From Ferrovibrio terrae (GTDB lineage: Bacteria; Pseudomonadota; Alphaproteobacteria; Ferrovibrionales; Ferrovibrionaceae): 64,000 nt of DNA. Positions 12,257 through 33,455 of this stretch are shown one piece after another. Location: contig NZ_CALRUC010000002.1 in NCBI RefSeq assembly GCF_943371255.1, forward strand, positions 27,086-91,085, read 5' to 3'. The position numbers and the translations under genes were made by a program. Below the pieces are notes generated by a model. It did not search any database, was not told where the DNA came from, and saw nothing but the letters and a program-made list of their open reading frames with translations. Every line of letters starts with the position of its first letter. The stretch's first letter is position 1.

Positions 12257-12438
12257 TCCCGCAGCGGCCCATCCGCGTCGGTGAAACCGTCAGGATCACC
12301 GACGCGATCTATGGCGAAGTGAAAGAGGTGGTTGCCGATTATTTCGGAACAATCGACCGCCTGATCATCGAAGTGTCTGATACGTGTTTTATCAATCTGT
12401 TTATCGAAGATCTGCCGACGCAGAGGCTTGATTCGTGA
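12253..12438 (+). CDS. Small hypothetical protein (61 aa, KOW/SH3-like start IRVGETVRIT)
   Basis: TTG start overlapping previous stop (TTGA); lower GC; no function assignable. Confidence 0.4.
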   Translation: MIPQRPIRVGETVRITDAIYGEVKEVVADYFGTIDRLIIEVSDTCFINLFIEDLPTQRLDS

Positions 12439-12476
12439 TCGACCATTTTCATCAAGACATTTCCTCAGCTGGCGTC

Positions 12477-12582
12477 GGCCGGCGGGGGTCGGGCTGCGCT
12501 AACAGCCCGAACCGCGAGGTGAGATCTCGCACGACCAAGACCGGCCTATCTGGGCCATCCCGCCACCCCTGCAGGGGCGGGA
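12477..12582 (+). promoter_or_regulatory. Structured leader upstream of com (multiple hairpins)
   Basis: TCGGGCTG-cgctaa-CAGCCCGA (12489-12510), GCGAG-N7-CTCGC (12514-12530), TCCCG..CCCC-tgca-GGGGCGGGA (12558-12582), closing GGCCGG/CCGGCC (12477-82/12541-46). Confidence 0.45.
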
Positions 12583-12603
12583 ATGTCATAGGGATCTCAA
12601 CAG

Positions 12604-12810
12604 GTGGAGTCTATTCGCTGCGGCCGCTGCGAGCGGTTGCTTTTCAAATCGACACCAGGCGCTGTCACAGGACGAATCGAAGTGAAGTGTTCTCGGTGCG
12701 GCAGCATCAATCAGATCAGGGCCGCGAGCCCATCACCGGAACGCCAGCGAGCGTCATTCATAGAGGAAACTATGATGACCAACGCAAACGACTCGGGGAG
12801 CGTAAAGTGA
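12604..12810 (+). CDS. com: Mu Com-family zinc-finger regulator
   Basis: IRCGRCERLLFK...IEVKCSRCGSINQ (CxxC...CxxC); position at Mu com locus. Confidence 0.85.
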   Translation: MESIRCGRCERLLFKSTPGAVTGRIEVKCSRCGSINQIRAASPSPERQRASFIEETMMTNANDSGSVK

Positions 12811-13718
12811 ATGTGGCTTTATCTCCCTTCAACGGCCTTGCGCTCTGTGCCGGCGGCGGCGGCCTCGAACTTGGCATCCATATTGCCGAACCCGAATATC
12901 GAACTGTTTGTTACGTTGAGCGGGAAGCCTACGCTGCAGCCGCTCTCGTGGCACGGATGGAAGACAAGGCGCTATCTGACGCGCCTGTCTGGAGTGACGT
13001 TACCAGCTTCAACGGCCGTCCGTGGCGCGGCGTCGTGGATATCCTCTCTGCGGGTTACCCGTGCCAGCCTTTCAGCTCGGCCGGCAAGAAACTCGGCACG
13101 GCGGATCCGCGCCACCTCTGGCCGCATGTCGCCAGGATCGTCCGTGAGATTGAGCCGGAATGGCTCTTCCTCGAAAATGTCCCGCACCATCTCCGCGTCG
13201 GATTTCCCGTGGTCGCAAACGACCTACGAGAAATGGGCTACCGGTTTGTGGCGGGCCTGTTCTCTGCGCGAGAAGCGGGTGCTGCACATTTCCGGCGGCG
13301 ACTCTTCGTACTGGCCCACGCCGACCGCGAGCAATGCCGGCGATTGGCCTCAAGTGCGTGTGGGCGCCACGATGCAGTTTTGCGATCCGCCGAACGGAAA
13401 CCAATTCGCGCTGCCAATGGCCGCGCGGATCTGGTGTCTGTGGTGGGATATGATCGTCGCAACCGTCGGCGTGCGCGCTATCGCGCAACGTCCGGCGAGC
13501 TGCCTGTCTATGCCCCTGGTCCAGGTGCTCTTGAAGCCTGGGCGCACATCATCGGAAGCGATCCCAGTCTTAAACCCGCGCTTTGGCGAGATGCTGATGG
13601 GCTGGCCGACTGGGTGGACCGCAACCGAGTCGTCGGTAACGGAGTTTCATCGGTGGCTGCGGCTTTCGCGTTCTGTACTCTCAAAGCTGAACTCTTTGCG
13701 GATGGATCTGCATCGTGA
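12807..13718 (+). CDS. DNA (cytosine-5) methyltransferase, alpha chain (lacks motif IX)
   Basis: GTG start overlapping com stop (GTGA), RBS GGGGAG; motifs I LCAGGGG, II VERE, IV GYPCQPFS, VI ENV, VIII HFRRRLFVLA, X GNGV. Confidence 0.88.
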   Translation: MNVALSPFNGLALCAGGGGLELGIHIAEPEYRTVCYVEREAYAAAALVARMEDKALSDAPVWSDVTSFNGRPWRGVVDILSAGYPCQPFSSAGKKLGTADPRHLWPHVARIVREIEPEWLFLENVPHHLRVGFPVVANDLREMGYRFVAGLFSAREAGAAHFRRRLFVLAHADREQCRRLASSACGRHDAVLRSAERKPIRAANGRADLVSVVGYDRRNRRRARYRATSGELPVYAPGPGALEAWAHIIGSDPSLKPALWRDADGLADWVDRNRVVGNGVSSVAAAFAFCTLKAELFADGSAS

Positions 13719-13773
13719 GGGTGAAAACCGCGATGTACCCGGCAATAATGCGGGCATCGAATCGGGGGAATGA
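12811..13773 (+). CDS. Overlapping +1-frame ORF: putative beta chain of the C5-methyltransferase (supplies motif IX)
   Basis: 320 codons open; WPTPTA (from 13312) and LNPRFGEMLMGWPTGWT (13570-13620) resemble TRD/motif IX segments; starts right after com stop and ends right before next ATG. Confidence 0.7.
   Translation: MWLYLPSTALRSVPAAAASNLASILPNPNIELFVTLSGKPTLQPLSWHGWKTRRYLTRLSGVTLPASTAVRGAASWISSLRVTRASLSARPARNSARRIRATSGRMSPGSSVRLSRNGSSSKMSRTISASDFPWSQTTYEKWATGLWRACSLREKRVLHISGGDSSYWPTPTASNAGDWPQVRVGATMQFCDPPNGNQFALPMAARIWCLWWDMIVATVGVRAIAQRPASCLSMPLVQVLLKPGRTSSEAIPVLNPRFGEMLMGWPTGWTATESSVTEFHRWLRLSRSVLSKLNSLRMDLHREGENRDVPGNNAGIESGE
13721..13749 (+). promoter_or_regulatory. Possible sigma70-type promoter for the GNAT-like gene
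   Basis: GTGAAA-N17-AATAAT upstream of RBS GGGGGA and ATG 13774. Confidence 0.3.
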
Positions 13774-14475
13774 ATGAACATCGCGCGCCAGATCGATCGG
13801 CACGCCGCGGCGATTGTTGCGGCGCTTGCCGAAGGCGGGTTCAAGGCTCATTTGAACGATGACCCGAAAGCCTATGCCGACTATGTCGGCACGGTGCCGG
13901 GTTACAGCCTGACCTCTCCGCTCGATCTGGCGTTTGTCGATGTGCGCGAGAAATTCATCTGGCTTCGCGTCACAGATAGCGCCGGCAATCTCGTCGCCAT
14001 CGAGGCTGGCCGTTATCTCAAAGCACCGACGCTCACCGGCGGCCTGAATCGCCTGCTGAAATCCCGGCGCTTCTTCGGTGAGCATCGCCCGACATTGCCT
14101 GTCGTCACGACGCTGCCGGCAATCAACCTCAGCGGCGACCTGGGCTACATGGGTGGCGGCTTCGTTGCCAAGGAGCATCGGGACCGCGGCGTCATGAGCC
14201 TCACGGCGCAGCTGACGATGCTACATCTCATGCGGCTGTTTCCCATCGATCATCTGTTCGGCCTGGTCAAAGCGCAGCACGTTGCGCGATCGCTGCGGCT
14301 GCAGGGTTATGGGTTCACTTCTGCGACTGCAGTGCGTTGGGCTTACTGGGCCGATTCGGCAGCGCCGGAGACCCTCTTCATGGTGCATGTTGACCGTGCG
14401 GCACTCATTGATCGTGTGGATGAACAGCCACATTACGCGCTCAAGAAATCCACGATCGTAGAAGGTAAAGTCTAG
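13774..14475 (+). CDS. Orphan GNAT/acyl-CoA N-acyltransferase-fold protein
   Basis: 233 aa; GGGFVAKEHRDRGVMSL resembles GNAT motif A (V.xxxR..G); FIWLRVTD.AG..VA..AGR and FGLV strands. Confidence 0.5.
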   Translation: MNIARQIDRHAAAIVAALAEGGFKAHLNDDPKAYADYVGTVPGYSLTSPLDLAFVDVREKFIWLRVTDSAGNLVAIEAGRYLKAPTLTGGLNRLLKSRRFFGEHRPTLPVVTTLPAINLSGDLGYMGGGFVAKEHRDRGVMSLTAQLTMLHLMRLFPIDHLFGLVKAQHVARSLRLQGYGFTSATAVRWAYWADSAAPETLFMVHVDRAALIDRVDEQPHYALKKSTIVEGKV

Positions 14476-30329: not shown

Positions 30330-31544
30330 TCAGCGCGCCGGAATGCCACGACGCGCGATCACCATGCACAGCGCGCCGATCAGGGTGACGAAGGCCATCA
30401 GCAGATAGCCGTCGGCATAGCTCAGGCCCAGCTCGTCATGCATCAAGGCGAAGCTGGATGGGCCGATCACCACGCCGGCAAAGGTGATGCTCAGCGTGGC
30501 GCCGGTGGCCAGGCCGATGCTTTGCGGCGGTGCCTGGCGCGCGATCACCGCCATGAACACACCGTTCCAGCCAATGGCGCAGAATCCGAACAGCATCACG
30601 GTGGCACCGGTCAGGCTGAGTGGCCAGTTGGTATCGATCAATGCCGTGAGAATGGCGGCCAGCATCGCCACCACGCCGTTCAGGATCAGCACCTTCGATC
30701 CCGATTTCAGGCGGTCGGCGAGCCAGCCCCAGGCGAGACGGCCGAACGCGCCGGCGGTCTGTGCCAGCGCCAGCATCGTGCCGGCCAGCACCAGATGCAG
30801 TCCGACTTCGGTGACCAGATAGGTGACCAGCAGGCCGGTCAGGCTGAGCTGCACGGCGGAATAGGCAAACGAACACAGGGCCAGCCAGCGCAGGATCGGA
30901 TGCCGCCACACCACGCGCAGGCCTGCCAGCGGCGAGAGCAGCAGCGGCGCATCAGGCAGCCGGTCGATATCCCATGACCGCCGTGCCCGCTGCAGCAGCA
31001 GGCTGAGGCCAAAGCCGAGCAGGGCACAGAAGGCCAGTCCGATCTGCCAGTTGAGTGCCAGCGTGATCGGTGGAATCAGCAGGCCGGCCAGCATGCCGCC
31101 AATCGGCACGCCGCATTGCTTGATCGAAAAGATCAGGTTCATATGCGCGCCGCTGCGTGTGCGCGACAGCAGATGCGAGGCGGCCGGATTGGTGCAGCCA
31201 TAGCCCAGGCCGATCACCAGGGCGCCCAGCACCAGGGCCTGCAGGGTGCCCCAGGCCGAGATCAGGCAGCCGAAAGCGGCGAGCCACAGTGCCATCTGGC
31301 TGGTGCGCCCGGCGCCGAGGCGACGCACAAAACCGCCGCCGATCAGCGATGTCACCACGGCACCGGCATAGACCAGGCTGACCTGATAGCCGGCCAGGCC
31401 GGGGCCGGTGCCCAGTTCGGCAGCGGCTTTCGGCGCCACGGCTGATAATGCCAGTGCGCATAATGTGGTGATCGACTGCGTACCGGTGGTGGCTGCCAGC
31501 ACCGGCCAGACCGGCAGGGTCGGCGGGCTGGCCGGATCGCTCAC
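30330..31544 (-). CDS. MFS transporter
   Basis: About 12 hydrophobic segments, G.LADR motif; GTG start overlapping GST stop. Confidence 0.88.
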   Translation of the reverse strand: MSDPASPPTLPVWPVLAATTGTQSITTLCALALSAVAPKAAAELGTGPGLAGYQVSLVYAGAVVTSLIGGGFVRRLGAGRTSQMALWLAAFGCLISAWGTLQALVLGALVIGLGYGCTNPAASHLLSRTRSGAHMNLIFSIKQCGVPIGGMLAGLLIPPITLALNWQIGLAFCALLGFGLSLLLQRARRSWDIDRLPDAPLLLSPLAGLRVVWRHPILRWLALCSFAYSAVQLSLTGLLVTYLVTEVGLHLVLAGTMLALAQTAGAFGRLAWGWLADRLKSGSKVLILNGVVAMLAAILTALIDTNWPLSLTGATVMLFGFCAIGWNGVFMAVIARQAPPQSIGLATGATLSITFAGVVIGPSSFALMHDELGLSYADGYLLMAFVTLIGALCMVIARRGIPAR

Positions 31545-32188
31545 TGCGTCGCCTGAAACTTCTGCTGATAGGACCGCCAACTGGCGCGGACTTCATCCAG
31601 CACCGGGGCTGCAGTCGGATGCGCCTTGATGCGTTGCCAGTAGGCGCTGAGCATCGGTCGCTTTTCCAGCAGGTTCTGACCGATCAGGCCGGGCAGCACT
31701 TCATCGACATAGAACAGCATGGGGCTTAGCGCGCAATCGGCCTGGCTGAACCGTGCCTCGGCGGCGCAGCCATCCTTTGCCACGTAGATGTCGAGGAATT
31801 TCAGCCCGCGCGCGAAAGCCGGGGTCAGGGCCTCGAGCGCCTCACGATTGCCCGGGTCGGTGAACAGCAGCACGAAGAAATCATGCAGCGGCGGTGCCAG
31901 ATAAAGGTCGGACAGCCGCACCATCAGTGTGACGCGGGCGCGCGCTTCCGGCGTGTCGAGATACAGCGACGGGCCGCCCAGGACGGCATCGAGATAGCCG
32001 CAGATCACTTCCGATTCCGGCAGCAATGTGCCGTCATCCAGCAGCAACGCGGGAATCTTGCCGATGGGAGCCATGCTGCGGAAATCGGCACCGGGCTTCA
32101 CCAGTTCGATCTGCGCACCGCCTTTGGCGCGCAACAGCATGCGCACACGGGCAGCGAAAGGCGAGCCATCGTTATTGTAGAGCTTCAT
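31541..32188 (-). CDS. Glutathione S-transferase family protein
   Basis: SPFAARVR, GKIPAL, ESEVICGYLD, F.QADC. Confidence 0.9.
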   Translation of the reverse strand: MKLYNNDGSPFAARVRMLLRAKGGAQIELVKPGADFRSMAPIGKIPALLLDDGTLLPESEVICGYLDAVLGGPSLYLDTPEARARVTLMVRLSDLYLAPPLHDFFVLLFTDPGNREALEALTPAFARGLKFLDIYVAKDGCAAEARFSQADCALSPMLFYVDEVLPGLIGQNLLEKRPMLSAYWQRIKAHPTAAPVLDEVRASWRSYQQKFQATQ

Positions 32189-32189
32189 G

Positions 32190-33455
32190 CTAGCGGTGCT
32201 TCCGCAGGTCTTCCCAGGCGGCCAGTTTGGCACGCGGGCTGCCCGGTGTCGCGGCGGTGGTTTCCGCCGCCTCGATGCGCTTCCAGCAGGTCCAGTCCAT
32301 CACAGGCACGCCACGGCTTTGCAGCCAGGCATCCAGTGCCGCCGAACCTTCCTTGGCCGGTGTAGAGTCGGTGGCGTAATCGGCGAGCAGCAGATCGGCC
32401 ACGGTCTTTGCCTCAGCGCGGTTGGTCGGGATGGTGCCCGAAGGCCCGCGCTTGGCCCAGCCCACCACATAAAGGCCCGGCGCGATGCGGCCATCGGTAT
32501 TGGCGATCACGCCGCGCTCATCGCTCTGCGGCAGGTCGCCGTCGGCTGCCGTGCGATAGCCAATCGCGCTGATGACGGTGCCGACATCGAGCGTCGGACC
32601 GTTCTTGATCTGCAGGCCCTCGACGCGGCTGCTGCCGGTGATGGCTTCAGGGATGGCGTTAAACAGGAAATGCAGCCTGATCGGCTTGTCGTCCTCGCGC
32701 GCGGCGAATTCATGCAGGATCGACAGATTCTTTTCCTTCACCCGGGCCTCGTTCGGATCGAGGCCGGCCGGCAGTGCCGCAGGCAGATCGCTCTTCTGAA
32801 CGATCGGGCGCAGGCGTTCCAGCCGGCCGAGTTCCGCCAGTTCGGCACTGGTGAAACTGGCCTCCACCGGGCCGCGCCGGCCGAGGATGTAAAGATCGGT
32901 CAGCGGTGCCGCCGCGATCATGTCTGCGGCATGGGCGGTCAGGTCGCTGCTTGCCATCTCTGCTTTGGTCTTGCCCAGCACGCGCACGATGTCGATGGCG
33001 ACATTGCCCATGCCGATCACGGCCGCGCCGGGTTTGTCCAGCAGCGGTTCGAGCGCGCGGAAATCGGGATGGCCGTTATACCAGCCGACAAAGGCCATCG
33101 AGCCATAGCGGCCGGGCAGATCCTCGCCGGGAATGCCCAGCGGCCGGTCGGCATGGGCACCCAGCGCCAGCACCACGGCATCGTAATGGCTGCGCAGGTC
33201 GGCCAGCGGCAGGTCGGTGCCGACCTGGACATGGCCGAGGAAGCGCACATTGCCACCGGCGAACAGGCGGTCGAACTGCCGGGTCACCGCCTTGGTGCCC
33301 TGGTGGTCGGGGGCGACGCCGAACCGCACCAGCCCGTAGGGCGTCGGCAGGCGATCGAAGACATCGATTTTCAGCTCCGGCTTCTGGCGGAGCAGGGCAT
33401 CGGCGCAGAACAGTCCGGAAGGACCGCTGCCAACAATGGCGATATGGTGCAGCAC
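32190..33455 (-). CDS. Adrenodoxin-reductase-type ferredoxin--NADP+ reductase
   Basis: GSGPSG, PTPYGLVRFGVAPDH, G.GNVA.D..R.L, GRRGP, GW.KRGP.G.I.TN; start 33455 (GTG) or 33482. Confidence 0.88.
   Translation of the reverse strand: MLHHIAIVGSGPSGLFCADALLRQKPELKIDVFDRLPTPYGLVRFGVAPDHQGTKAVTRQFDRLFAGGNVRFLGHVQVGTDLPLADLRSHYDAVVLALGAHADRPLGIPGEDLPGRYGSMAFVGWYNGHPDFRALEPLLDKPGAAVIGMGNVAIDIVRVLGKTKAEMASSDLTAHAADMIAAAPLTDLYILGRRGPVEASFTSAELAELGRLERLRPIVQKSDLPAALPAGLDPNEARVKEKNLSILHEFAAREDDKPIRLHFLFNAIPEAITGSSRVEGLQIKNGPTLDVGTVISAIGYRTAADGDLPQSDERGVIANTDGRIAPGLYVVGWAKRGPSGTIPTNRAEAKTVADLLLADYATDSTPAKEGSAALDAWLQSRGVPVMDWTCWKRIEAAETTAATPGSPRAKLAAWEDLRKHR

Follow-up and report, generated by a model that had tools for sequence, protein, structure and literature searches.

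Two-subunit C5 DNA methyltransferases in which the two chains are encoded by different frames of one gene have been shown experimentally for one E. coli enzyme, M.EcoHK31I, which, with its isoschizomer M.EaeI, recognizes YGGCCR (Lee, Kam and Shaw 1995, PMC306636; described in PMC2836561 and PMC3404938). In M.EcoHK31I, the alpha chain carries motifs I-VIII and X, while the beta chain, encoded in another frame inside the alpha gene, carries motif IX, and both chains are needed for methylation. The alpha chain is 309 aa in length, the beta chain about 176 aa and internal, and the target recognition domain is assigned to alpha (PMC3404938). M.AquI is likewise assembled from two polypeptides split within the variable region, in this case with motifs IX and X both on the small subunit (PMC3404938). 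The two M.AquI genes are separate rather than overlaid. A third relevant system is the com-mom pair of phage Mu, in which a small zinc-ribbon protein, Com, controls translation of a DNA-modification gene from an RNA hairpin that masks the translation start region.

Here we describe a 0.96-kb stretch of a prophage in Ferrovibrio terrae (GCF_943371255.1, contig NZ_CALRUC010000002.1, positions 27,086 to 91,085; this whole 64,000-nucleotide stretch is referred to as the window) that is kept open and conserved in two reading frames, both on the + strand. The original prediction held that a C5 methyltransferase is split here across two almost completely overlapping frames, and its observation is confirmed to the base. 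The alpha frame runs from GTG 12807 (303 aa), or from a second in-frame GTG at 12813 (301 aa), to a stop at 13716-13718. The beta frame, shifted by +1, runs from ATG 12811 to a stop at 13771-13773 (320 aa) and is open over all 908 shared bases (12811-13718). WPTPTA (13312-13329) and LNPRFGEMLMGWPTGWT (13570-13620) lie in the +1 frame, GNGV (13635-13646) in alpha, and the Shine-Dalgarno sequence GGGGAG at 12795-12800.

Alpha is a PF00145 cytosine-5 methyltransferase. Residues 9-175, with motifs I (AdoMet binding), IV (PC), VI (ENV) and VIII, match profile positions 2-165 of 324 (E 8.9e-30; 104.6 bits against a curated cut-off of 22), where the match stops, and nothing matches the motif IX region. 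The protein belongs to a very large family, with more than 3,900 hits covering 95-98% of its length at 50-64% identity, mostly from alphaproteobacteria; no source name pointing to M.EcoHK31I appeared among the homologs listed for either chain. In an alignment of 41 members, residues 1-172 and 233-295 are conserved, including the invariant G277, N278, G279 and V280 of motif X, while residues 173-232 (13323-13502) are not and look like low-complexity filler. An AlphaFold2 model is confident for residues 8-172 and for a C-terminal helix at 282-300 (pLDDT about 90), but falls below pLDDT 50 for 177-228. Foldseek superposes the model on M.HaeIII (1dct) and M.HhaI (E about 1e-12) over only about 176 of about 325 template columns, corresponding to the large catalytic domain, and a profile-profile alignment with nine canonical single-chain enzymes from related genomes places motifs I-VIII and X, with GNGV aligned to the GNAv of those enzymes. 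Alpha is therefore a catalytic core plus motif X, without a recognizable small domain (target recognition plus motif IX) in the same chain.

To determine whether the +1 frame is open by more than chance, 80 homologous loci from distinct species, with alpha identities of 42-57%, were examined. The +1 frame has no stop across the whole alpha match in 71 loci and 1-2 stops in the rest, those inspected (for example the window's own) lying at the ends, while the +2 frame has 5-24. Shuffling synonymous codons within each gene leaves the +2 count unchanged (mean 9.7 observed, 10.1 shuffled) but raises the +1 count from 0.12 to 2.4. The cause is visible at dicodons that would create a stop: Leu is coded NTG before an A-starting codon in 6/130 cases against 962/2387 elsewhere, Val in 3/97 against 498/1589, and Met followed by an A-starting codon occurs 4 times in 242, although 11% of codons start with A.

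Synonymous variation in alpha was then analyzed column by column. Of 90 alpha columns that are conserved and degenerate, 45 use one synonymous codon far more than family-wide usage predicts, and each choice fixes a beta residue. V46 is GTG in 100% (expected 28%), giving beta Trp; A152 is GCG in 100%, giving the invariant beta Arg; and G263 is GGG in 100% (expected 17%), giving the Gly of MGWP. Many of these columns lie in the N-terminal half, so that the part of beta overlying the catalytic domain is constrained at the amino-acid level too. An earlier, cruder whole-region test was not decisive, since beta amino-acid identity in the N-terminal half exceeded synonymous shuffles (0.388 vs 0.288) only a little more than the +2 frame did (0.346 vs 0.269), and it was replaced by the dicodon and column-wise tests. 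The 52-80 sequences used are related, so the P values overstate independence, but the direction and size of the effects are unambiguous. These data also bear on the possibility that the +1 frame is untranslated and open only because of GC-rich composition, codon bias or RNA structure. The window is about 60% G+C, which lengthens chance ORFs, and shuffling that keeps each gene's own codons leaves a mean probability of zero stops of 0.17 per gene. However, the +2 frame of the same genes has as many stops as the shuffles, beta-specific residues are conserved where alpha is not, and the arrangement also holds in phages whose hosts are not G+C-rich (Acinetobacter, Paenibacillus, Salmonella; the G+C content of those loci was not measured), where alternative frames of 200-300 codons are unlikely to stay open by chance. 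We regard this explanation as contradicted by the comparative data and very improbable.

In nearly every locus, a beta start codon sits one or two codons before a conserved Trp-Leu-Tyr-(Ile/Leu)-Pro, and the conserved MWLY[IL]P start lies 2-4 nt from the alpha start. The latter takes one of two positions, either a GTG 2 nt downstream (NTGTGG) or an ATG or GTG 4 nt upstream (RTGNATG); the window has both options. The bases vary at beta third positions while alpha changes amino acid there, pointing to selection in the beta frame. The two starts share one ribosome-binding site, as originally inferred, although the 1:1 stoichiometry that this was suggested to set was not measured.

The sequence context of the starts resembles the com-mom arrangement. 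Upstream lie tail sheath, tape measure, baseplate and fibre genes, the pair sits at the end of a contractile-tail prophage, and no restriction enzyme was seen next to it. Directly before the pair is a 68-aa com-like zinc-ribbon ORF (12604-12810, +) in the same frame as beta, matching phrog_6417 ('translational regulator', E 1.6e-14) and phrog_13819 ('gpCom control of modification', E 8.8e-07); its TGA stop (12808-12810) overlaps alpha GTG 12807 and abuts beta ATG 12811. Bases 12795-12828 are predicted to fold into an RNA hairpin, GGGGAG.GUAAAGU[GAAUGUG]GCUUUAUCUCCC, with a minimum free energy of −15.2 kcal/mol (z −3.12; 0 of 200 shuffles as stable). The Shine-Dalgarno sequence lies in the stem, and the 7-nt loop holds ATG 12811 whole plus the last base of GUG 12807 and the first two of GUG 12813. 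Both a Com-like gene just upstream and a start-masking structure are thus present, suggesting joint, Com-dependent translation of both chains, although binding of Com to this RNA and activation were not assayed and the controlled gene is a two-frame cytosine methyltransferase instead of mom. The hairpin is not general in the family (median z 0.25 over 79 loci), and com-like ORFs precede the pair in about 14 of the 79. Downstream, a 233-aa ORF (13774-14475, +) with no PHROG or NCBIfam hit begins with an ATG that directly follows the beta stop (TGAATG), and may belong to the same operon.

An alignment of 52 betas revealed four regions: a conserved N-terminal half (..SGKP..RPLSWRGW.TRPW..LSGT..PSTA..GA..FISSLP.IPAS..ATSG..); WPTPTA, with W168, P169 and T170 at 90% or more; a middle part of variable length; and LNP.F.E.LMGWP.GWT..VT....WLRRMR..LS. 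The middle part is either a short form with G..F..Q..AAR.W or carries extra WPTP/W.TP.ARD.KD modules, giving totals of 287-448 aa. Where beta gains modules, alpha simply gains filler. In the window, the unconserved alpha spacer is a passenger of the beta frame, which encodes there the conserved WPTPTA..G..F..Q..AAR.W module (including W208). The AlphaFold2 model of beta is poor overall (pLDDT 58.7, pTM 0.28): residues 1-128 are mostly disordered, followed by a helix at 136-156, a module at 176-250 (pLDDT about 80), a short helix at 256-263 and a long helix at 278-306. Foldseek found no match to this model in the PDB.

The original prediction assigned the segment at 13570-13620 to motif IX. The same bases read LKPALWRDADGLADWVDR in alpha, and both readings are conserved: the segment is present in the +1 frame of nearly all 80 loci, and alpha codons are fixed here (P255 CCC 98%, G263 GGG 100%, A265 GCC 98%). 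The identification of LNPRF..MGWPTGW as motif IX is plausible but rests on pattern only. The best local hhalign match of the beta C-terminal profile to the nine canonical enzymes falls exactly on motif IX, LMGWPTGW against LQGFPxxY, but at E 0.095, a score too weak to decide the matter either way. HMM searches of full-length beta and of its C-terminal 54 residues against PDB sequences gave only chance hits, and Pfam and NCBIfam have no family for beta. The order of modules along the DNA, with I-VIII in alpha, WPTP and the IX-like segment in beta, and X in alpha, is that of a canonical enzyme, raising the possibility that a single polypeptide is made by programmed frameshifting. This would need two shifts in opposite directions; no slippery heptamer was seen when the alpha-to-beta junction (13290-13330) was read by eye, without a systematic search, and the model does not explain the conserved beta start codon and N-terminus, the absence of stops, or the site-specific codon choice in the N-terminal half. 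In M.EcoHK31I, two separate chains were purified (PMC2836561). We consider a doubly frameshifted chain very unlikely.

To assess the breadth of this layout, phage records and protein collections were searched. A tblastn search of beta against phage records found nothing at E 1e-5, but profile comparison matched beta to phrog_1008 (E 2.2e-13; residues 78-177, which overlie alpha motifs IV-VIII, against profile positions 36-144 of 329) and alpha to phrog_363 (E 1.3e-51), both phage 'DNA methyltransferase' families. Phage examples were reached instead through the alpha protein and through one beta relative, P0125, that first appeared to stand alone but proved to lie in the +1 frame of another C5 methyltransferase gene; in the fetched loci and phage records examined, beta-like ORFs lay over an alpha gene, and no truly stand-alone beta was found. 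The pair occurs with starts 4 nt apart in Salmonella phage S9-5 (244 and 247 aa), Pseudomonas phage phPA-G (239 and 242 aa) and Acinetobacter phage ABMM1 (304 and 298 aa), and with an internal beta start near alpha motif IV in Paenibacillus phage Diva and Mycobacterium phage SG4. Diva gp50 is a beta homolog annotated inside the methyltransferase gene as 'g49 internal gene', and window beta aligns to it at E 1e-7 over residues 81-270. No functional description of the pair was found in two Paenibacillus phage genomics papers (PMC6070908, PMC5056774), nor was any discussion of overlapping phage methyltransferase genes found in the overlapping-gene and Paenibacillus phage literature. A profile of beta finds about 27,750 clusters at 50% identity (2,867 at E of 1e-30 or better) among 1.84 billion representatives. 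The 120 best listed carry no Pfam domain and no subunit name, being unnamed or 'hypothetical protein' apart from one that JGI labels 'DNA (cytosine-5)-methyltransferase 1'. The original claim that annotation pipelines would normally call only alpha is thus only partly true: pipelines often call beta but never name it as a subunit, although in this genome only alpha appears among the predicted proteins returned by the searches.

Taken together, the comparative evidence supports the core of the original interpretation, a second protein in the +1 frame that spans essentially the whole alpha gene and starts next to the alpha start, in the manner of M.EcoHK31I. We propose, with reasonable though not full confidence, that the locus encodes a two-subunit C5 methyltransferase in which alpha is the large domain and beta, through its C-terminal half, most likely supplies the small, DNA-recognition domain including motif IX that alpha lacks, binding alpha to form the active enzyme, as the beta chain of M.EcoHK31I does. 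In this model, beta consists of a mostly disordered N-terminal half overprinted on the catalytic domain, a WPTP module, and an LNPxFxExLMGWPxGW helix followed by a C-terminal helix, and translation of both subunits is probably switched on together late in infection, as Com does for mom in phage Mu. Our analysis shows that both frames are under purifying selection, that the starts are coupled and that alpha lacks a folded and conserved small domain, whereas the translation of beta, its assembly with alpha, its role in recognition and control by Com are inferred; transcripts, methylation activity and the complex were not examined here, either experimentally or by modelling of the complex. An alternative is that beta is a real protein but not a methyltransferase subunit, having an independent function (for example DNA binding, anti-defence or regulation) overprinted on the gene, with alpha working alone or with another partner. 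Beta has no significant sequence or fold match to any methyltransferase part, its N-terminal half is predicted to be disordered, as is common for overprinted proteins, and alpha keeps a conserved segment (residues 233-276) before motif X that might serve in place of motif IX. However, alpha has no folded or conserved domain between motifs VIII and X, so it lacks the part that reads DNA in every solved C5 methyltransferase, beta-like ORFs lay over an alpha gene in the fetched loci and phage records examined, and the M.EcoHK31I precedent shows that such a beta chain is required (PMC2836561). We consider this alternative unlikely.

The locus fits the M.EcoHK31I scheme in having a beta chain encoded in an alternative frame within the alpha gene and in its similar alpha length. 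It differs in that the overlap is complete, the starts are adjacent, and the conserved module between motifs VIII and X lies in beta while the alpha spacer is filler, so that beta seems to carry more than motif IX; it is also a com-linked prophage gene. Sequence homology to the M.EcoHK31I chains was not examined. A further reading, which we consider slightly more likely than not, is that the whole of beta, including the roughly 165 residues overprinted on the catalytic domain, is a functional protein. This clade would then be a family of roughly 240-450-codon, fully dual-coding gene pairs (about 300 codons here) kept across proteobacterial, firmicute and actinobacterial phages, in which the adjacent start codons would act as a built-in device coupling synthesis of the two subunits and here placing both under one Com-controlled hairpin. 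That would make it one of the longest and most widespread same-strand overlapping gene pairs known in DNA phages and bacteria.

Long same-strand overlapping genes are thought to be rare outside small viruses, and annotation pipelines discard them, yet here a pair of about 300 codons is under selection in both frames and recurs in thousands of phage and prophage loci. The system is a natural test bed for how two proteins share codons and for how adjacent start codons set subunit ratios, and since split methyltransferases of this kind have been used as scaffolds for targeted methylation (PMC2836561), a large natural family of them is of practical interest. Half of a common phage methyltransferase is missing or unnamed in databases, and predictions of methylation specificity from the annotated alpha gene alone would miss the part that probably reads the DNA.

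The first 12,256 nucleotides of the window carry a contractile-tail prophage module, comprising tail sheath, tape measure, a baseplate hub with a match to phrog_17109 ("DNA circularization"), baseplate wedge and fibres, an organization consistent with a Mu-like prophage whose right end carries com plus a modification gene. The alpha frame remains open upstream of GTG 12807, as far as 12435 (12435-12806), and the public protein P0001 (340 aa) starts upstream of the conserved start; this is probably an over-extended gene call running across the com-like ORF.

A strong local hairpin at 12795-12828 (−15.2 kcal/mol, z −3.1) pairs the Shine-Dalgarno sequence GGGGAG with CUCCC of beta codons 5-6, while its 7-nt loop holds the beta ATG whole and part of each alpha GUG. 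Together with the com-like ORF ending at 12810, this element looks like a translation-inhibition structure of the Mu mom type. Across 12604-14475, the com-like ORF, beta and the 233-aa downstream ORF lie in one frame and are separated only by TGA-ATG junctions (12808-12813 and 13771-13776), suggesting that their translation is coupled through termination and reinitiation. The 233-aa protein has no PHROG or NCBIfam match.

In L030, a locus from a Hoeflea MAG, the alpha frame is cut by a stop (ORF 1438-1836) while beta is intact at 311 aa, and in L062 beta ends early (223 aa) while alpha is intact; these may be assembly errors or decaying copies. In Paenibacillus phage Diva (NC_028788; gp49 31248-32300, gp50 31432-32136), annotators had already recorded the beta-type ORF as "g49 internal gene" and named it DNA methyltransferase, and the two P. 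larvae phage genomics papers list two cytosine methyltransferases without comment.

The association with a com-like gene is not confined to the window. Com-like ORFs with a CxxC...CxxC pattern precede the alpha/beta pair, upstream of the beta start, in about 14 of 79 homologous loci, namely the window and 13 others (L004, L013, L017, L018, L025, L027, L038, L040, L041, L042, L062, L064 and L071). A module of com plus a two-frame methyltransferase therefore recurs. In several sphingomonad loci, a different hairpin pairs the start-codon region.
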